In this document: piece after piece, positions 6,589 to 21,168 of the stretch
How positions within the stretch are numbered: the first letter of the stretch is position 1
Layout of the letters: every line of letters starts with the position of its first letter
Virus genome (UHGV): UHGV-0110025
Strand: one strand, 5' to 3'
Length of the DNA stretch: 30,952 nucleotides
Source: a virus
The notes under the pieces: model-generated
Told to the model about the DNA's origin: nothing
Databases searched by the model: none
The model's input: the letters and a program-made list of their open reading frames with translations, nothing else
Made by a program: the position numbers and the translations under genes

Positions 6589-6648
6589 TTTACATCCATA
6601 TCATGCACATACAATACCTGCATGATTCACTTTTTCTCTTCCCATCAT

Positions 6649-6682
6649 TTGCTAATACGTGATACTGTACAAATATACAGTT
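6649..6682 (+). promoter_or_regulatory. LexA-repressed promoter (SOS box), equivalent to 186 p95
   Basis: TACTGTACAAATATACAGTT at 6663-6682 matches the LexA consensus TACTGTATATATATACAGTA at 17/20, with a perfect CTGT-N8-ACAG core. TTGCTA (6649-6654) is a good -35 and the box overlaps the AT-rich -10 area. GGGAGGG SD and an ATG follow at 6703. Confidence 0.75.
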
Positions 6683-6702
6683 ATCATATTGGGAGGGATT
6701 TC

Positions 6703-6888
6703 ATGGTTGGGGAACATTTCAGCCGAACGCAGCAAAAGTGGGCTTGTGTGCAATTCATTGCCGAGATATCTCTGGTTGCAAACTGCAAGCCAGCAGACTT
6801 AAAGCTTGCGCTTACTCTCATTGCTGATCTGGCAAACAGCGAAAACAACGAAGAACCAGAAAATGAAGTCTTTTATAAGGCTGAATAG
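6703..6888 (+). CDS. Small acidic-tailed protein, first ORF of the SOS operon
   Basis: ORF 6622..6888 trimmed to the ATG at 6703, because the LexA box and promoter lie inside the longer version and GGGAGGG sits 6 nt upstream of 6703. It is in the same reading frame as the next ORF, separated only by TAG-GTT. Confidence 0.5.
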   Translation: MVGEHFSRTQQKWACVQFIAEISLVANCKPADLKLALTLIADLANSENNEEPENEVFYKAE

Positions 6889-6891
6889 GTT

Positions 6892-7148
6892 ATGAAAATT
6901 AATCTCACATTGGATAAGAAACAAAAACTAGGCCGACCGGTTATTGATGCCTTTCAATGCGAATTGACCAAGAGGACACTGTCTATTTTTCCGTCAACAT
7001 GTGGTGCCGTCAAGAGAGCACTATGAGTGGTGCTGAGTTGATGGAGTTTGATATAGATTCAGATCGCGAGGCGCTTGATGGTATTCTCCAAGAAATCTGG
7101 GAAGACGAGCAGTTGGCGGTAGTTAATGACAGAATGTGCAGACCATAA
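6892..7148 (+). pseudogene. DinI/Tum-like (antirepressor-type) gene split by a -1 frameshift
   Basis: 6892..7026 encodes MKINLTLDKKQKLGRPVIDAFQCELTKRTLSIF..., like the DinI N-terminus MRIEVTIAKTSPLPAGAIDALAGELSRRIQYAF. The -1 frame from ~6990 to 7148 encodes SVNMWCRQESTMSGAELMEFDIDSDREALDGILQEIWEDEQL, like the DinI C-terminus (...ISEILQETWESADDW). The frames switch at the T5 run 6986-6990. Confidence 0.6.
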
Positions 7149-7194
7149 CCCTATGTCTAGTTGCACGGAGGTTAGAAAAAATGCTGTCCGAATT

Positions 7195-7213
7195 AGCCCT
7201 CTCTCAGAGGGCT
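7195..7213 (+). terminator. Stem-loop after the SOS operon, possible terminator
   Basis: AGCCCTCT-ctc-AGAGGGCT is a perfect 8-bp stem. No immediate U-tract; a T5 run starts 17 nt downstream. Flanked by the direct repeat AAAAATGCTGT (7176-7186 and 7220-7230). Confidence 0.35.
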
Positions 7214-7346
7214 ATGAATTAAAAATGCTGTTTTTGATATGTTAACCTCTTAACAGTTTCATCTTTAAATCTTGTAAAGTAAAACTTTGCGTTTATGATT
7301 GATAAAAATTAAAAAAGTATGAAGAGGCTGTAAAGGAGTTTTATCA

Positions 7347-7862
7347 ATGCCTGGATTCCAAAATGCACAGCAAAATCAATTTGATGATCATGCTCCAGAA
7401 ATGGAGATAAACTTAATCGTAGATGTTGCTGAGCAGCCCGTAGCCTTTACCTATCAATATAGTGAGCAAATTAGCCACCTTGCACCGCAATGTCCGCCAG
7501 CAGAAGCGATTGAATGTGACAAAGAATGCTGGCGCTTCACTCTCAATCCGATAACGGACAGTTGCTTTTGGCCTCCAAAAAGAAGGGTTCCTGAGAGGGT
7601 TGCCTCAGACAGTCAGCAGGAGTGCTCTATGTGGGCGTTGTCTATGTATGAATCAGAGCGACAAGCTGTAGTCGCTTATTCTGGGCTTTCTAAGTCAGTG
7701 AGAAATATTAAGAAAACAATTGGAGATCACCTTGCAAGAGGCACGGTAGCTTGTGGTGATGGTAGATGTATGCCTCCAAATAGAAAAGGCCATTTTGACT
7801 TTCATCCATATTTAGATACTGAGTTCCCTGATGGCTTTCAGGTAATAAGAGCATTACCATGA
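7347..7862 (+). CDS. Hypothetical protein (171 aa), first gene of an accessory pair
   Basis: Strong SD AAAGGAG 8 nt upstream of the ATG. AT-rich upstream region. Its stop overlaps the next start (ATGA at 7859-7862). No domain recognised. Confidence 0.75.
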   Translation: MPGFQNAQQNQFDDHAPEMEINLIVDVAEQPVAFTYQYSEQISHLAPQCPPAEAIECDKECWRFTLNPITDSCFWPPKRRVPERVASDSQQECSMWALSMYESERQAVVAYSGLSKSVRNIKKTIGDHLARGTVACGDGRCMPPNRKGHFDFHPYLDTEFPDGFQVIRALP

Positions 7863-8947
7863 TAAAATTAGATGCTAAAAGAATCACTGCACCGGAGGTC
7901 GGAGATTACTCGTGGTATTCTGACTTGGTGTATTTTGATGGACCACTGATTTGTTTATTTCGAGGAAGTGGCTATAAGGATGCTCTTTATGTTTGGCTTG
8001 ATAATTCAACCAGAGCCAACCGCTGGTGTTTAATACCTGTATCAAGGTCAACTTTAGATTCCTATCTTAATCAAAGAATGAGTCTAAGAGAAATCATACA
8101 ATCAAACGAATATGTTTATATTTGCAATCACTTTGCAGAAACAGGACGAAAAAATTATAGCCGTCTGAGCGTAGATGATTTCCCTGAGGAATATATGCCT
8201 GATGCTGACTCATATTTATATGAAGAAATATGCACCGATGACGCACTATTGTTAAAGCAAGAACGCACATCTAGCTATATGCTAGGACTGGACAACCAGT
8301 TGTTTATAAATGATTTATCAGAAATTCCAAAAATTTTCGAACAATTGTATTCTTTCCACTATGGACTTGCCCACTTGGGCAGAATTTCCATTAGAAATAC
8401 CATGCTGCGATTGATGGGTAGTTGGACTGGTGGATTCTCAGCAGTAAATATTTTCACTGGTTTAAAGAATGTCATTCCTGTCCTGCACCGCCCAGAAGTT
8501 AGCTCACTTCAATATAACTCCCCCGGACATATTGAATTGAACTTGCTTCCTGACTTGGCGCAGAGCGTTCAGGATGTATCTGTTCGTGTTGAAAATGAAT
8601 TTATTTATGACCGTTTAGAGAAAATCTATAAAAACAATTACACATACTTTAAAGATAAAGATCTATCAGGTTTTGATGAGGGTGGAGGAATTGAGTTAAG
8701 GAACATCGACTCTGAAACCACAGAAAATCTTCGTAAGCGTGTTAGAATTTTCTTTAGGTGTTTAGGTTGGAAAACCTATCAAGCGCAGTTTGATATGATC
8801 GGTGCCCATCCCTTGCAGCAGTTACGCGCAGTTATGGCGTATTACAGACGCCTGAAAACATTACGAGAATATATTGTGGCAGATAAATTATTCATTGGTC
8901 ATTCGCGAGTGCCGGTAGAGCAAATTACTGTGAATACTGAAAATTAG
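7859..8947 (+). CDS. Hypothetical protein (362 aa), second gene of an accessory pair
   Basis: Long uninterrupted ORF in AT-rich DNA. Translationally coupled to the upstream gene. No catalytic motif or TM segment recognised. Confidence 0.8.
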   Translation: MIKLDAKRITAPEVGDYSWYSDLVYFDGPLICLFRGSGYKDALYVWLDNSTRANRWCLIPVSRSTLDSYLNQRMSLREIIQSNEYVYICNHFAETGRKNYSRLSVDDFPEEYMPDADSYLYEEICTDDALLLKQERTSSYMLGLDNQLFINDLSEIPKIFEQLYSFHYGLAHLGRISIRNTMLRLMGSWTGGFSAVNIFTGLKNVIPVLHRPEVSSLQYNSPGHIELNLLPDLAQSVQDVSVRVENEFIYDRLEKIYKNNYTYFKDKDLSGFDEGGGIELRNIDSETTENLRKRVRIFFRCLGWKTYQAQFDMIGAHPLQQLRAVMAYYRRLKTLREYIVADKLFIGHSRVPVEQITVNTEN

Positions 8948-9073
8948 CTTTCTGCATGAGGATGCGTGAATCTGCATTATTTATTAATTCAACCCATAGA
9001 TACTGTAGGACGCAATAGGCATGGGCTTGAGACCAAAATGCAACTGCATTAAAACCGCCCCATTAAGCGGGTA

Positions 9074-9092
9074 GGCGTGGCGGGGAAAGCAT
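9074..9092 (+). other. cos: cos cohesive-end sequence (19 nt)
   Basis: GGCGTGGCGGGGAAAGCAT matches the P2 cohesive end GGCGAGGCGGGGAAAGCAC at 17/19. From memory it is the 186 version. It sits in a GC-rich non-coding block upstream of the portal gene's 3' end, as in P2/186. Confidence 0.8.
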
Positions 9093-9311
9093 TGCGCGCC
9101 AGCAGTGATGCGTAATAATAAAAATTATCCTCTGAGCGCGTCGTGATGGCGCTGTCGTGGTCGCTGCTGGTTCGTTGGTGGTCGGGTGTGTTCGTGCGCG
9201 TGAGACGCATCTGATGCGTGATGGTGGTGTGCATGGAAAAGCCACCAGGAGCAGCGGCTTTACAGGAGTGGCAGGATTCAAACTGCTAATTATGTTTCTA
9301 CTATGATTAAA

Positions 9312-10316
9312 CTAATTTACATGTATGTAGAGTTCACCGTCGCCAGACCAATCGGGACACTCTAAAACAAGCCCAAACTGCTTGAATATTTCATCAATGA
9401 TTATTGTTATCTCCCGAAAATCACCAAAACCTGTAATGTGCTGGTCATTAAACTTCCCATAAAGATTCTGAAAAGCAATGCCTAATTCTGATAATTGATA
9501 TCTTATCTTTGAGTTGGATAGTGTAAGGGATAGCTTTGGATCGTATTCTTTAATATTGATGTTTAGAGAATGGACATAACCCATCGCATAAGCATAAGAG
9601 TTGATGATTAGCCTGATACGTTTTTTTACTTCGAGATACATGTCATTCAGAGAAATATTACCGTACTTATAACCCCAGATGAGTTTTTCAATCTCGTCAG
9701 ATACTTCATTTACAACAGTGTCAAGATTCTCTAAAAATAAATCAATAGTTTCTTGAGGGGCAGACCCCGAAGACATGTAATTAGCGAGATATTCAGACCA
9801 TGCACGCGTGGCTGAGATAAGAAGCGCGCTACCATACTCGTTGACTGTAAAATTTTGGGCTAAGCATGTTAGTAAGTTTTTTTCATGTACGTGCACTAAT
9901 TCATGGTGAATGCGATGGATGACTGCGAGGTATCCTTCTTCTTTCAGTTTTAAGAAGCTACCATCATTGAAAAGCTCAACAAAAAAATCAATCGATAGCA
10001 CAAGGGTATATTCTTCACATAGCCCATCATTGCCAATTTTTGTTACTAACTGCCCGACGGCTGCGCCCTGTTTGCTATTGGTAAATGAACTAGGGGATTT
10101 GTGTTGGTAAGAGGATGTTACCTTTTGAAGAGCTTCACTGAAGTTATAGGAAACAATCACGCATTTTAATTTGGAGATATCAAGATTGAGATTTTTTGTT
10201 AAAGCTCGGATAGCTTCTAGTGTGAAATTACCGATATTATTTGCTTCTTGCTCAGTAGCGAAACCTTCGAGGGTTATTTTAAAATCAGTTTCCAAAATAT
10301 TAATCTCCGCGCCCAT
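9312..10316 (-). CDS. Hypothetical protein (334 aa) with HExxH zinc-metallopeptidase-like motif
   Basis: Long ORF in very AT-rich DNA. HELVH is encoded at 9891-9905 (context AVIHRIHHELVHVHEK). No signal peptide or TM segment. No obvious SD. Confidence 0.78.
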   Translation of the reverse strand: MGAEINILETDFKITLEGFATEQEANNIGNFTLEAIRALTKNLNLDISKLKCVIVSYNFSEALQKVTSSYQHKSPSSFTNSKQGAAVGQLVTKIGNDGLCEEYTLVLSIDFFVELFNDGSFLKLKEEGYLAVIHRIHHELVHVHEKNLLTCLAQNFTVNEYGSALLISATRAWSEYLANYMSSGSAPQETIDLFLENLDTVVNEVSDEIEKLIWGYKYGNISLNDMYLEVKKRIRLIINSYAYAMGYVHSLNINIKEYDPKLSLTLSNSKIRYQLSELGIAFQNLYGKFNDQHITGFGDFREITIIIDEIFKQFGLVLECPDWSGDGELYIHVN

Positions 10317-10334
10317 TGTTTTGATATTCGATGC

Positions 10335-10363
10335 ACTATAGCTTTCGCAGATTGCATCTTCAA
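10335..10363 (-). promoter_or_regulatory. Candidate sigma70 promoter for the HExxH gene
   Basis: On the minus strand: TTGAAG (10363-10358), 17-nt spacer, TATAGT (10340-10335). Located between the portal stop (10394) and the ATG at 10316. Predicts a short leader. Confidence 0.5.
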
Positions 10364-10393
10364 TAATGAGCGCAGAGATTGTGGCGGCCTAAG

Positions 10394-11440
10394 TTATTCT
10401 GGGTTGTCGAGGGTGTACTCTTTGAACCTGATGACCTCCATACCGAGCCAGTCGTTTACCTCCCTGAACCTATCCTGCAGGGGTGACAGCTCATTACGCA
10501 CAAATACCTTTGCCACCTTCTCAACGTCACCGAGTGAACCGATATTCTCGGGCTTGCCGCCCATGAGCTGGAACGGTACGCGGTGCGCGTCCATCAGATC
10601 GGCGGCACTGGCCTTCTTGATGTTGAAAAAGTCATCCTTTGTGGCGACCTCGCTCAGTGGCACGATTTTGATGCCGTCCGGTTTTCCGCCGGGAGCGTAG
10701 AAAAACAGGTTCTTAAAGTTGCCGAGCCCTTTTGAGTTGCGCATCGCCTCGCGCAGCGATTCGACGTCGGTCGCGCTCTGCGCCGGGTCAGTCACATACA
10801 TGATGTAACCCGCGTGCGCGCCGTTCTGATAATACTTGCGGCGGAACAGCGTCGCGGATTCATTCAGCCAGGCGGAATTTAGCGCGCTGAGATATTCGGG
10901 CAGGCCGTAAATCTCCTGATTAATGTCGGGCTCCAGCAGGTGAAACACGGTATCAGGCGCGAACTCGTGCGGCTGGGTGAAGTTTTCCACAAACCAGAAA
11001 ATCGAATCGTCGACTCCGCGTCGGGTGTATTTGGCTGGCGAGGCCAGCAGTTTGATTAACTGGCCGGTGACGCTGTGGCGCTGCTCAAGAAAGGCGTTAC
11101 CGAACACCAGATAATCGAGCGCAAAGCGGCTGAAATCCTGACGGGATAACAACGGGTGCGGAATGTAGGTGCTCGCGAGCACGTTACGCTTAACATAAAT
11201 TGGCGAGCTGTGATGCACGGCAGAGCGCAGGCTCTTTGCCAGCCCTGAGAAGCTGACCGGCGGCTCGTACCATTTGCCGTTACTGATGCACTCGACGTAA
11301 TCCAGAATGTCGCGCTTATCGAGTACCGGCACCGGCTCGCCGAAGGTGAACGCTGTCGTTTTTGGCGGTGCGCTGGCGGTCAGTTGTTGTGGTTTGCTGG
11401 CCTTTTGTGCGTTGGCTTTACGGGATTTTTGTTTACCCAT
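10394..11440 (-). CDS. Q: Portal protein gpQ
   Basis: 348 aa, size and position of P2 Q. Adjacent to and co-oriented with terminase P. Conserved P2-like sequence. Confidence 0.95.
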   Translation of the reverse strand: MGKQKSRKANAQKASKPQQLTASAPPKTTAFTFGEPVPVLDKRDILDYVECISNGKWYEPPVSFSGLAKSLRSAVHHSSPIYVKRNVLASTYIPHPLLSRQDFSRFALDYLVFGNAFLEQRHSVTGQLIKLLASPAKYTRRGVDDSIFWFVENFTQPHEFAPDTVFHLLEPDINQEIYGLPEYLSALNSAWLNESATLFRRKYYQNGAHAGYIMYVTDPAQSATDVESLREAMRNSKGLGNFKNLFFYAPGGKPDGIKIVPLSEVATKDDFFNIKKASAADLMDAHRVPFQLMGGKPENIGSLGDVEKVAKVFVRNELSPLQDRFREVNDWLGMEVIRFKEYTLDNPE

Positions 11441-18274: not shown

Positions 18275-18704
18275 CGCCGTGCCGCAGCTCCGAAATAATC
18301 CCGATATGCTGCGCCTTTTTGCCGACAACGGCCATACCGATTCCCGACTGGCGAGCTCGCTGTCGTTTGAAAAGGTGTACGTGCTTAACGTGGTGGTTAC
18401 CGACTTCACCGGTGACCTTGATTTGATATTCGTGCCGGTGCAGGCGTGGCTGCGTGAACATCAGCCGGACATTATGACCACCGACGACGGGCGGGAAAAA
18501 AGATTCACCTGGATTATTGATATCAATAACGACGATTCGCTCGATATCAGTATCAGCCTGAGGCTCACCGAGCGCACGCTCGTCAAAGAGGTCGACGGCG
18601 CGCTGCACGTCAGCTATGCCCCTGAGCCGCCACTGCCTGAGCCGGTGACGCGCCCGGTCGAGCTGTACGTTAACGGCGAACTGGTGAGTAAGTGGGATGA
18701 GTGA
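18228..18704 (+). CDS. R: Tail completion protein gpR
   Basis: ~155 aa. Conserved gpR features (LSFEK.Y.LNVVVTDFTGD, ELYVNGELVSKWDE). The start may be the ATG at 18237. Confidence 0.87.
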   Translation: MNSMQKHKSLRKALINAVPQLRNNPDMLRLFADNGHTDSRLASSLSFEKVYVLNVVVTDFTGDLDLIFVPVQAWLREHQPDIMTTDDGREKRFTWIIDINNDDSLDISISLRLTERTLVKEVDGALHVSYAPEPPLPEPVTRPVELYVNGELVSKWDE

Positions 18705-19143
18705 ATTAACCGCGCTGCAGGAACGCCTTGCCGGTCTGATTGCCAGCCTGTCACCGGCGGCACGTCGGCAAATGGCGGCTGAGATTGCGAAAAAGCTGCG
18801 TACCAGTCAGCAACAGCGTATCAAGCGCCAGCAGGCACCCGACGGCACCCCGTATGCGGCACGAAAGCGCCAGCCGGTGCGGAGCAAGAAAGGTCGGATT
18901 AAACGTGAAATGTTCGCCAAACTGCGCACCAGTCGCTTTATGAAAGCCAAAGGCAGCGACAGTGCGGCGGTGGTGGAGTTTACCGGCAAGGTGCAGCGCA
19001 TGGCGCGGGTTCATCAGTACGGCCTCAAAGACCGGCCAAACCGTAACAGCCGGGATGTGCAGTACGAGGCGCGCCCGTTGCTCGGTTTCAATAGTATAGA
19101 TATGAGAATTATTGAGCGGTTAATAATTGGGGCTTTGGATTAA
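18697..19143 (+). CDS. S: Tail completion protein gpS
   Basis: 148 aa, position and size of P2 S. The last ~18 codons (from ~19090) are encoded in AT-rich DNA. Confidence 0.87.
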   Translation: MSELTALQERLAGLIASLSPAARRQMAAEIAKKLRTSQQQRIKRQQAPDGTPYAARKRQPVRSKKGRIKREMFAKLRTSRFMKAKGSDSAAVVEFTGKVQRMARVHQYGLKDRPNRNSRDVQYEARPLLGFNSIDMRIIERLIIGALD

Positions 19144-19171
19144 TTATGATCTAATATATTATTTTGTGATG

Positions 19172-19192
19172 AGGCTGGATAAACACCAGCCT
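19172..19192. terminator. Stem-loop between convergent S and the HIT gene
   Basis: AGGCTGG-ataaaca-CCAGCCT is a perfect 7-bp stem, followed on the plus strand by TGATTTTAT. Lies between two convergent stop codons (19143 and 19198). Confidence 0.5.
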
Positions 19193-19197
19193 TGATT

Positions 19198-19842
19198 TTA
19201 TAGTTTGAAATCTGCGTAATTATCAATAACCTCTAGAACACCGCTGATATTGTTATCTCTGCGCCAATTCCAATTGCCATGTATCAAATTTGCATTAGAA
19301 TAAAGATATCTAAGGAACTGAGATGGTAAGAGTGGTTTGTTGCATAAAAATTCATCATAACTATTACTCATATACCACACATATCCATTTTTAATGTCAA
19401 AACTTAAATTCTCACCTTCAATTTTCTTAAAGTTAATTTCTTTATTTAGAGCATTTTCAAACTCTTGTGTATAATAAACACAGTGTATATGAGCGTGAGA
19501 AATGCACCCTCCTGAACGATCTATATTTTCACCTGCTCCGCTTTCAAAGAAAATTAGAGATCTACCAGATTGGTGGATTATAAATTCATTAAGTTCTCGC
19601 AGAATCTCCTTGCCATTACTCCGGGTATCTCGATCAAGAGCAGCAAAGGAGTTGATATGCCGCTTAGGAATCAGCATCACATGCGAATTATTTAGCGGGC
19701 CAATACTAGGTACAATTAGAAAATCATTTGTTTCTGCAATGATATTTTTCTTGTCATTTACGATTTCATCGTATCCTTTGATAAGGCTAATGCCATTTAT
19801 TTCATCGCATATTCCACAGAACGAATTACAAGAATTATTCAC
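19198..19842 (-). CDS. HIT-family (histidine triad) nucleotide hydrolase/transferase-like protein with C-terminal extension
   Basis: GTG start at 19842 with AGGAGA SD 8 nt upstream. N-terminal CGIC. FLIVPSIGPLNNSHVMLIPKRH core. His triad HAHIH is encoded at 19483-19497. A ~90-aa extra C-terminal region follows. DNA is very AT-rich. Confidence 0.85.
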   Translation of the reverse strand: MNNSCNSFCGICDEINGISLIKGYDEIVNDKKNIIAETNDFLIVPSIGPLNNSHVMLIPKRHINSFAALDRDTRSNGKEILRELNEFIIHQSGRSLIFFESGAGENIDRSGGCISHAHIHCVYYTQEFENALNKEINFKKIEGENLSFDIKNGYVWYMSNSYDEFLCNKPLLPSQFLRYLYSNANLIHGNWNWRRDNNISGVLEVIDNYADFKL

Positions 19843-20407
19843 GTTTATTGTCTCCTGGTTTTTTAGGGAGCAATTTTTCAGCCCAAGATGCGAGTCGGCT
19901 TAGAACTAAGTCTGAAAAATATCCTAATATAAAACAAATCGAGAATGCAATTTTGGTCTTACCATGCCCTTTAATGGAGGATACAAACGTATCCGGAGAT
20001 AATATCGTATAAGAACAAAAAGCCACTAAAGCAGCTAAGAACGGAATAAAAATCCTCCAGTAGAACTTATGGGATTCCCAAGGAAAATTATACTGATTGT
20101 TTTTCCCTCTAGCAGTTACTCTATAAAACCATTTTGCATTATACACCCACCCTCCAAAAAAACCGCCAAGAATAGAAAACAAAGATATTTTATTATTATA
20201 TGACAGCTCAAAAACAAATTGGAAAAGAAAGGCGAGAATGCAACCTATTACAAAAAGAACTATTAAATAAGCAAATTCGAATTTTATTTGTTCACAATCG
20301 TTATTAAAATAAGGCACAACCTCATCATCGCCTAAGGTTTTTTTTCTTTCAGTCATTTGCCAAACACCTTCATTTTTTACTGTGAGCCAGGGTAATTGCA
20401 TATTCAA
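19835..20407 (-). CDS. Integral membrane protein, about four predicted TM helices
   Basis: Hydrophobic segments FAYLIVLFVIGCILAFLFQFVF, ISLFSILGGFFGGWVY, FYWRIFIPFLAALVAFCSYTIL and IAFSICFILGYFSDLVL. The 3' end overlaps the HIT gene start by 8 nt. 20407 is a TTG; the real start may be the ATG at 20401, or the ATG at 20356 (MTERKK, preceded by GAAGG). Confidence 0.8.
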   Translation of the reverse strand: MNMQLPWLTVKNEGVWQMTERKKTLGDDEVVPYFNNDCEQIKFEFAYLIVLFVIGCILAFLFQFVFELSYNNKISLFSILGGFFGGWVYNAKWFYRVTARGKNNQYNFPWESHKFYWRIFIPFLAALVAFCSYTILSPDTFVSSIKGHGKTKIAFSICFILGYFSDLVLSRLASWAEKLLPKKPGDNKRE

Positions 20408-20414
20408 CTTGGCT

Positions 20415-20466
20415 ATTCTAATTAATTCTCACAAGATTTCATAGATGTTGAGTAGACCTCTCAGAA
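20415..20466 (-). promoter_or_regulatory. Candidate promoter region for the TM/HIT pair
   Basis: On the minus strand: a good -10 TAGAAT (20420-20415) without a clear -35, and an alternative TTCTGA-17 nt-TATGAA (20466-20438). Ambiguous in AT-rich DNA. Confidence 0.3.
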
Positions 20467-20532
20467 GTTGTTTCATTCCTCACAGAATCCATCTCGATTG
20501 CCACTAATCTTGCCGGGCGTCATCCTTCCCAT

Positions 20533-21168
20533 ATGAAAAATCTAAATTCTTTGCAAGAAATCGCACGCGCGATCCGAAATCTCATCCGTACCGGCATCGT
20601 TAGCGACGTAGACCTCAAGGAGGGGCTATGTCGTATCCAGACCGGGGGGATGCAAACCACTTGGCTGAACTGGCTGACCACCCGAGCCGGTCGTTCGCGG
20701 ACGTGGTGGGCTCCCTCGGTCGGTGAGCAGGTTCTGCTGCTGGCAATCGGTGGCGAGCTTGATACCGCTTTCGTGCTGCCGGGTATTTTCTCCGACGATA
20801 ACCCCGCCCCGTCTGCCTCGGCGGATGCGTGGCATGTGGCTTTCCCTGATGGTGCGGTCATTGAGTACGAGCCCGAAACCGGCGCGCTGACGGTCAGCGG
20901 CATAAAAACGGCCGACGTGACGGCATCGGAGTCCATCACCGCAACCGTACCGCTGGTACTGGTGAAAGCCTCGACCAGTATCACCCTCGACACCCCGGAG
21001 GTGATTTGCACCAATAAGCTAACGACGGCGACGCTTGAGGTGCAGAAAGGCGGCAAGATGAGCGGCAATATCGAACATACCGGCGGGTCACTGTCGTCTA
21101 ATGGCAAGGTACTCCACACCCATAAACACCCGGGCGACAGCGGCGGGCAAACGGGGGCACCGTTATGA
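20533..21168 (+). CDS. V: Baseplate spike/assembly protein gpV
   Basis: 211 aa. RAGRSRTWWAPSVGEQV and C-terminal GKVLHTHKHPGDSGG are hallmark gpV sequences. Confidence 0.94.
   Translation: MKNLNSLQEIARAIRNLIRTGIVSDVDLKEGLCRIQTGGMQTTWLNWLTTRAGRSRTWWAPSVGEQVLLLAIGGELDTAFVLPGIFSDDNPAPSASADAWHVAFPDGAVIEYEPETGALTVSGIKTADVTASESITATVPLVLVKASTSITLDTPEVICTNKLTTATLEVQKGGKMSGNIEHTGGSLSSNGKVLHTHKHPGDSGGQTGAPL

Follow-up and report, generated by a model that had tools for sequence, protein, structure and literature searches.

The window analyzed here is the 30,952-nucleotide (nt) sequence of the virus genome UHGV-0110025, a P2/186-like prophage in which two minus-strand genes, one for a four-helix membrane protein and one for a HIT/CwfJ-type enzyme, lie between tail completion gene S and baseplate gene V. 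We find that the two proteins form an obligate functional pair and that the unit they make up is a self-contained, horizontally mobile two-gene accessory cargo carried on several kinds of mobile element. From its genomic context we consider it possible, at a little short of an even chance, that the pair is an undescribed anti-phage or abortive-infection module composed of a nucleotide-handling HIT enzyme and a membrane effector. The two genes and the site that couples them are as follows.

19835..20356, minus strand: gene for the four-helix membrane protein, 173 amino acids (aa) from ATG 20356; the frame is open up to TTG 20407.
19851..19856, minus strand: AGGAGA ribosome-binding site of the HIT gene, within the last codons of the membrane gene and 8 nt before the GTG (from the sequence).
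19198..19842, minus strand: gene for the HIT/CwfJ-type enzyme, 214 aa, GTG start, stop codon 19200-19198.

The genes overlap by 8 nt. This coupling, the AGGAGA site, a histidine motif HAHIH (19497-19483), and a CGIC motif (19818-19807) had been described in an earlier note on this DNA, made without database searches, and all are present in the sequence. In all homologous loci the two genes either overlap or are separated by a short distance (−4 to +98 nt). Searches led by the HIT protein gave the membrane gene directly upstream at every locus with upstream DNA, as did every context look-up, and a search of IMG/VR and JGI metagenomes led by the membrane protein gave an adjacent HIT gene in 36 of 36 loci with downstream DNA and none without one. 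Both genes were present in 42 fetched loci, which reduce to 23 nonidentical pairs; across these, the two proteins diverge together (Mantel r = 0.907, with none of 5,000 permutations as high). The earlier note had proposed a survey of co-occurrence as a test of its idea, and the outcome agrees with it very strongly.

Motif, profile, and fold all place the cytosolic enzyme in the HIT superfamily, the assignment made in the earlier note, and RefSeq names it “HIT family protein” in the E. coli prophage. It passed the Pfam gathering scores for HIT (PF01230; 23.4 bits, cutoff 21.5), DcpS_C (PF11969; 28.5 bits, cutoff 24), and CwfJ_C_1 (PF04677; 28.4 bits, cutoff 21, E = 1.6e-06, residues 30 to 130), and CwfJ_C_1 is the precomputed annotation on most homologues. 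The AlphaFold2 (AF2) model is confident (predicted local distance difference test [pLDDT] score, 88.9) and has the α/β HIT fold. Three elements of the enzyme are referred to below.

19483..19497, minus strand: histidine triad H116-A-H118-I-H120 (sequence and homologue alignment).
19807..19818, minus strand: C9-G-I-C12 motif, a putative metal site with conserved His/Cys (C9 and C12 invariant).
19201..19470, minus strand: C-terminal half, residues ~125 to 214, with GYVWY, N-x-PLLPSQFLRYLY (R178), and WNWRR (W193).

The triad is part of HAHIHCV (residues 116 to 122), which fits the pattern H-φ-H-φ-H-φ-φ; it aligns with the HxHxH of solved HIT proteins, with a weak best PDB sequence match (E = 4.6e-05), and is kept as DHAHLH in a distant branch of the family described below. 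The likeness to Hint and Fhit would make H118 the nucleophile. Among 23 homologues (39 to 81% identity), C9, C12, H54, H62, FFESG, C113, H116, A117, H118, and H120 are invariant, as are GY, N-x-P-x-LPSQFLR-xx-Y, and WNWRR in the C-terminal half. Hint, Fhit, and bacterial HinT share the segments NSH-VMLIPK-x-H and HxHxH with the window protein, and also a CxxC near the N terminus; it differs from them in an extra conserved 90-residue domain and an obligate membrane partner, and the sequence scores are weak.

A closer likeness is to the CwfJ module of eukaryotic proteins. CWF19L1, CWF19L2, Drn1, and Cwf19 are spliceosome disassembly and lariat-debranching cofactors, CWF19/Drn1 acts at the 2′-5′ branch of intron lariats, and bacteria have no spliceosome. 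Besides the CwfJ_C_1 match, the conserved residues of the window protein, judged by their spacing, follow the pattern of this module: CxxC, H-8-H, HxH, R-15-W. Judged by the predicted model, the entire 214-aa chain has the two-domain CwfJ fold of CWF19/Drn1, extending over both CwfJ halves, and its last ~90 aa are the structural counterpart of CwfJ_C_2. What the earlier note had regarded as a C-terminal extension of unknown function is therefore CwfJ-like, part of a two-domain fold. CwfJ_C_2 (PF04676) was absent from the Pfam matches of the enzyme even at E ≤ 1, and is thus not detectable by sequence; identity to CwfJ proteins is 11 to 20%. The conserved residues C9/C12, H54/H62, H116/H118, and R178/W193 have the order and spacing of Drn1 C269/C272, H311/H319, H366/H368, and R459/W474, a comparison made by spacing and not by residue-level alignment. 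The Drn1 paper describes C269/C272, H311/H319, and H366/H368 as conserved and R459/W474 as needed for function; the C9/C12 spacing is that of C269/C272, which Drn1 function requires. Unlike CWF19/Drn1, the window protein is a stand-alone chain without a Dbr1-like, zinc-finger, or RNA recognition motif N-terminal region, it keeps the full HxHxH triad, and a membrane partner replaces the spliceosome partners.

The membrane gene had been placed at 19835-20407 in the earlier note. The frame is indeed open over that length, but the translation start is most likely ATG 20356 rather than TTG 20407, because RefSeq gives a 173-aa product (labeled “hypothetical protein” in the E. coli prophage), the closest homologues align from that Met, and a promoter-like −10 element ends at 20415. 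Those homologues are mostly 166 to 176 aa long. The AF2 model (pLDDT 80) has helices at residues 20 to 48, 53 to 81, 95 to 119, and 133 to 162, and hydropathy together with K/R counts fits an inner-membrane protein of four transmembrane (TM) helices, with both termini and the loop of residues 74 to 101 predicted to be cytoplasmic. Two segments stand out in the homologue alignment.

20054..20137, minus strand: predicted cytosolic loop between TM2 and TM3, residues 74 to 101, AKWFYRVTARGK..HKFYWR (top conservation).
20147..20167, minus strand: Gly-rich GGFFGGW motif in TM2 (homologue alignment).

The loop has the highest mean top-residue frequency of all regions (0.84), followed by TM4 and the Gly-rich TM2; it carries six K/R and one D/E, with invariant columns at K75 to G84 and H96 to R101, and is a candidate docking or ligand site. 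In the GGFFGGW motif, G64, G65, F66, G68, G69, and W70 are invariant among 37 homologues, and the motif may serve in helix packing or oligomerization. PHROGs places the pair in “unknown function” families only (phrog_22917 for the membrane protein), and PADLOC, NCBIfam, and Pfam gave nothing above cutoff for the membrane protein. A role as a GtrA-like flippase or transporter was considered and dropped, with no profile support, and a SLATT-type effector was dropped with no match.

The position of the pair in the window is that of exchangeable cargo, and the features concerned are these.

19086..20560, no strand: swapped cargo segment at the S-V junction of the P2/186-like prophage (blastn homology breaks and G+C content).
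18697..19143, plus strand: tail completion gene S, left flank (open reading frame [ORF]; “phage virion morphogenesis protein” in an identical E. coli prophage).
20533..21168, plus strand: baseplate gene V, right flank (ORF; annotated “phage baseplate assembly protein V”).
19170..19194, plus strand: G+C-rich terminator-like hairpin located where S and the HIT gene converge, a 9-bp stem then ATTTTATAGT (scan).
20415..20442, minus strand: promoter-like site, ATGAAA, 16 nt, TAGAAT, 5′ of the membrane gene (sigma-70 consensus scan).

The gap between S and V is filled by two minus-strand ORFs (19198-19842 and 19835-20407). G+C content is 0.30 to 0.39 across 19150-20500 and 0.53 to 0.64 on either side, which bears out the AT-rich insert reported in the earlier note; for the cassette the value is 0.34 against 0.58 to 0.60 in the surroundings, the foreign composition looked for in a moron. 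When the window was compared by blastn with sister E. coli prophages (L047 to L050), whose flanks are 89 to 99% identical to it, homology ended at window positions 19085-19090 and returned at 20533-20561, in agreement with the limits of 19090-20532 first given for the cassette; the swapped segment takes in the final ~55 nt of S and the entire S-V spacer. In these relatives the slot is either empty, with a 68-nt spacer, or holds antisense genes for a 278-aa pentapeptide-repeat protein, for two hypothetical proteins (140 and 170 aa), or for a 261-aa UPF0489 protein. Since relatives at 95 to 99% identity hold nothing or differing antisense genes, the S-V junction is genuinely a slot where cargo is swapped, and the cassette, whose place in otherwise near-identical prophages is empty or taken by other genes, is P2-family hotspot cargo, as the idea of a variable-locus moron had anticipated. 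The swap boundary lies inside S (19086-19143), so that the last ~18 codons of S come with each cargo variant, and a recombination event that replaces the cargo alters the C terminus of the tail completion protein as well.

In P2, S is the last gene of the O operon and V the first of its own, so the insert sits between two operons and interrupts neither. Of the earlier view that it runs antisense to, and interrupts, the late tail operon, the antisense orientation stands and the interruption does not: the hairpin at 19170-19194, terminator-like for the plus strand and lacking a T-run on the minus strand, follows S, and the empty site is only 68 nt long. The cassette occurs at ≥99.5% identity in 8 of 5,426 complete E. 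coli genomes, each time in a P2/186-like prophage. A blastn search of 50,697 GenBank phage records returned no match, and the pair is thus known from prophages and metagenomes only.

Elsewhere, the pair is found in the P2-like S-V slot of E. coli, Enterobacter, Pantoea, and locus L015, and in the P2-like gpA-gpQ slot of loci L016 and L034 to L036, a slot validated as a defense hotspot (Rousset 2022). In an Enterobacter P2-like remnant, the Septu genes PtuAB lie ~4 kb from the pair. Head, lysis, and replication genes are gone from this remnant (L033, 4023-11247); it retains ogr, some baseplate genes, a Cox-S fusion, the pair, and PtuAB, which would fit selection acting on the cargo once the prophage had decayed. 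The pair lies next to S24 repressor and CII genes in Pseudomonas prophages, and it is cargo beside a PDC-M02B candidate gene in a Vibrio filamentous phage with Rep_trans and Zot. There (L037, 7132-10642), Zot is followed by an ADP-ribosyltransferase-like gene, the PDC-M02B-like gene (E = 4e-41), and a 95-aa ORF, with the pair coming last, an arrangement that points to a defense-type cargo cluster on an inovirus. In Halomonas a Wadjet-like JetABCD cluster immediately precedes the pair. The pair stands alone, inserted among metabolic genes, in Pseudomonas 9AZ, Burkholderia, Rhodoferax, Thalassospira, and L044. In Thalassospira (L041 to L043, 8632-10845) it has a complete TetR gene on one side and a 49-aa TetR_C_3 fragment on the other, with no integrase nearby, as though the 3′ end of the TetR gene had been duplicated or split when the pair inserted. 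The pair has a G+C content of 34 to 48% in every host, whereas that of the flanks is higher, mostly 50 to 65%.

A profile search with the membrane protein, run exhaustively, identified 350 representative relatives at E ≤ 0.001. Twenty-one of these, at E ≤ 1e-30, form the close family; the others belong to a large distant branch of >900 clusters from Actinobacteria, Acidobacteria, and other groups. Three distant-branch genomes have a 217- to 224-aa HIT/CwfJ homologue (E ~1e-18 to the enzyme profile) just 5′ of the membrane gene, so that the gene order is reversed, with HIT/CwfJ first. Further downstream there is often a Dam-like methyltransferase matching PD-Lambda-5_B (E = 6e-107), and after it an 850- to 900-aa protein with a weak MazG/PRA-PH match. 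The distant-branch homologues of the pair matched no PADLOC family. Loci of this branch are as follows.

L051, 5352-9224.
L053, 5351-9990; the genes lie among integrase, ArdC, and AbiEii genes.
L054 and L055.

The distant branch resembles a separate system of three or four genes. One protein, P0337 (412 aa), is a natural fusion of the two partners, reading ..FEHG..HAHLHVVP..PPSQFFRQ.. and then the membrane domain; as predicted, its HIT/CwfJ part is N-terminally truncated, and a long low-complexity tail follows the four-helix domain. Still remoter HIT/CwfJ proteins, from archaea and candidate phyla radiation bacteria, have no membrane partner. The same is true of HIT/CwfJ homologues with 24 to 26% identity in two metagenome-assembled genomes, one from Woesearchaeota (L006, 3802-4901) and one from an uncultured gammaproteobacterium (L008, 2364-3426), where the gene lies directly 3′ of a second, plain HIT gene of ~150 aa.

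We favor an anti-phage function because of the hotspot positions, the defense neighbors in three or four independent contexts, the patchy distribution, and the foreign base composition. The pair falls among hotspot-borne enzyme-plus-membrane modules, and such pairs in such slots act against phages as a general rule (Rousset 2022). Hotspot genes of unknown function also protect often: when P4 hotspot loci of this sort were randomly chosen, six of eight were phage protective (PMC13586616). On this basis the pair would be expressed from the lysogen as an abortive-infection-type module. The cytosolic loop of the membrane protein would be the docking site of the HIT/CwfJ subunit, which would act as a nucleotide-handling sensor or regulator, binding or hydrolyzing a nucleoside monophosphate (NMP)-linked compound, or a nucleotide-tagged nucleic acid end, that arises or is lost in the course of infection. 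By this step the membrane subunit, which is probably an oligomer whose packing depends on the GGFxGGW helix, would be switched and would then collapse the integrity or energy of the membrane so that the infected cell stops before the phage cycle is completed.

Several results weigh against this proposal. Neither protein matched any of the 5,027 models of PADLOC-DB 2.0.0 at E ≤ 1, candidate families included; these models cover Rst_hydrolase-3TM, Thoeris type II ThsC, and the PDC candidates, and the same result supports the view of the earlier note that the pair is a candidate for an undescribed system. No defense or mobile-element gene lies within 10 kb of the pair in Pseudomonas 9AZ, Burkholderia, Rhodoferax, Thalassospira, or L044. 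The membrane protein has no significant structural relative, its PDB matches being generic helix bundles and BFVD giving none at E ≤ 0.001, and its role as an effector is therefore a guess from architecture. Promoter-like sites in the region are no more frequent than in shuffled sequence (4 found, 5.7 expected), so the site at 20415..20442 is a candidate promoter at most.

HIT enzymes normally cleave or transfer NMP groups and are not known as makers of second messengers. The earlier note had likened the cassette to CBASS (phage defense by signaling through cyclic oligonucleotides), Pycsar, and Hailong. Like CBASS with TM effectors, Pycsar, Hailong, and type III CRISPR systems with CorA, the cassette places a nucleotide-handling enzyme beside a small, possibly pore-forming membrane protein, but the comparison fails at the defining signal synthase, the cassette having no cyclase or nucleotidyltransferase gene and no SAVED, CARF, or SLATT domain by Pfam, NCBIfam, and PADLOC. 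At Pfam cutoffs the membrane protein also matched no domain recognized for pore formation or ligand sensing, and its structure matches were generic. A CBASS-like cascade was accordingly rejected for a two-gene cassette without a synthase gene, which could work only as a unit of two parts, enzyme and effector. In design it comes closest to Rst_hydrolase-3TM, also a small hydrolase-type enzyme with a multipass membrane protein in a hotspot of the P2/P4 family. That system, a HAD-like hydrolase and a membrane protein from the P4 hotspot, is active against T7, and abortive infection has been proposed for it (Rousset 2022); the enzyme fold is HAD there and HIT/CwfJ here, and the membrane protein and the slot differ as well. 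In the literature searched, the only HIT protein tied to defense is ThsC of type II Thoeris, a PADLOC candidate that PADLOC’s authors suggest might degrade the Thoeris signal. ThsC is an add-on rather than a core component, its model was not matched by the window protein, and ThsA and ThsB are not near the pair. Apart from that remark, searches on HIT or CwfJ and phage defense gave nothing relevant, and no HIT system and none of these accessions is mentioned in the supplements to Rousset 2022, the paper on DefensePredictor, a screen centered on domains, or a study of metagenomic selection.

Other functions can be set against an anti-phage role. The pair might be an addiction (toxin-antitoxin-like) module, with a membrane toxin checked by the HIT protein, or it might exclude superinfecting phages by blocking the entry of related-phage DNA without killing. 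A compact, translationally coupled unit that moves as a block, persists in decayed prophages, and inserts alone amid housekeeping genes, once apparently splitting a TetR gene, would be expected of such a module, and a membrane location suits known exclusion proteins. We consider this fairly unlikely, however: the catalytic center is invariant over very deep divergence, which would be unusual for a mere antitoxin, and the methyltransferase and large protein of the distant branch look like parts of a multipart system. In practice, moreover, this alternative overlaps strongly with abortive infection. It is less probable still that the pair confers resistance to nucleotide-type toxins such as microcin-C-like peptide-nucleotides, or modifies a membrane-linked nucleotide compound as a form of lysogenic conversion. 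HIT-mediated immunity to peptide-nucleotide antibiotics exists, HIT phosphoramidases cleaving microcin-C-like compounds, and both the intact triad of the HIT fold and a location on mobile elements would suit a resistance gene. The window protein is nevertheless of the CwfJ two-domain type and not a small Hint-like phosphoramidase, neither Pfam nor NCBIfam gives its 173-aa partner a transporter or flippase signature, and in no context examined were toxin biosynthesis or envelope modification genes nearby.

Counterdefense, with the HIT enzyme breaking down a nucleotide signal of host immunity in the manner of Acb1 or Apyc1 and so aiding the prophage or its progeny, seems to us very unlikely. The hydrolysis of nucleotide conjugates by HIT enzymes, the activity suggested for ThsC, and the carriage of the pair by phages in many cases would all agree with it. 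Transcription, however, opposes the late genes and comes from the cassette’s own region, as in morons expressed from lysogens; known signal-degrading anti-defense enzymes have no obligate membrane partner; and the pair is also found in chromosomes outside phages and beside Wadjet. That these are ordinary nucleotide housekeeping genes present in a prophage by chance, a view that the RefSeq name and the labels of Ap4A (diadenosine tetraphosphate) hydrolase or ATP adenylyltransferase given to homologues by some sources might invite, is the most improbable explanation of all, given their presence in so few E. coli genomes, a base composition that is always foreign, the dedicated membrane protein always alongside, and the occupation of cargo slots in four kinds of mobile element.

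If the pair does protect against phages, the HIT fold, among the oldest of nucleotide hydrolase folds, joins the enzymology of bacterial immunity, and a first function will have been found for prokaryotic CwfJ-type proteins; for their eukaryotic relatives CWF19L1, an ataxia gene, and Drn1, the mechanism is still unclear. The P2 S-V junction would then be a second or third defense slot to mine. A bolder reading, which we hold to be credible but on balance doubtful, is that the pair represents a new and widespread class of bacterial immunity in which a CwfJ-type HIT enzyme, sharing ancestry with CWF19/Drn1, is hard-wired to a dedicated four-helix effector. The class would comprise two deep branches and >1,000 protein clusters, the larger branch adding the Dam-like methyltransferase and the large MazG-like protein, and what the enzyme senses or processes would be a molecule that is tagged with a nucleotide and produced during infection. 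If true, this would tie bacterial conflict systems to eukaryotic RNA machinery in a further way. With its obligate pairing, natural fusion, and larger multigene branch, the system can be tested directly through simple mutants, and a pair that does not protect would still be a clean case of a very mobile two-gene unit.

The other antisense cargos of the S-V slot in sister E. coli prophages gave no convincing PADLOC match and are further candidate systems for the same slot. Their positions are as follows.

L048, 1144-1980, antisense: pentapeptide-repeat protein.
L049, 1076-2010, antisense: the two hypothetical proteins (140 and 170 aa).
L050, 1122-1907, antisense: UPF0489 protein.

The second P2 hotspot of the window, the gpA-gpQ slot (6600-10400), has cargo of its own, with ORFs at 7347-7862 (plus strand), 7859-8947 (plus strand), and 9312-10316 (minus strand). 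The 171-aa and 362-aa products of the plus-strand ORFs had no PDB sequence match, and the 334-aa minus-strand protein (9312-10316) had no Pfam or PADLOC match. Only 45% of this stretch is present in any of the 5,426 complete E. coli genomes, and its cargo may be a second candidate system on the prophage.

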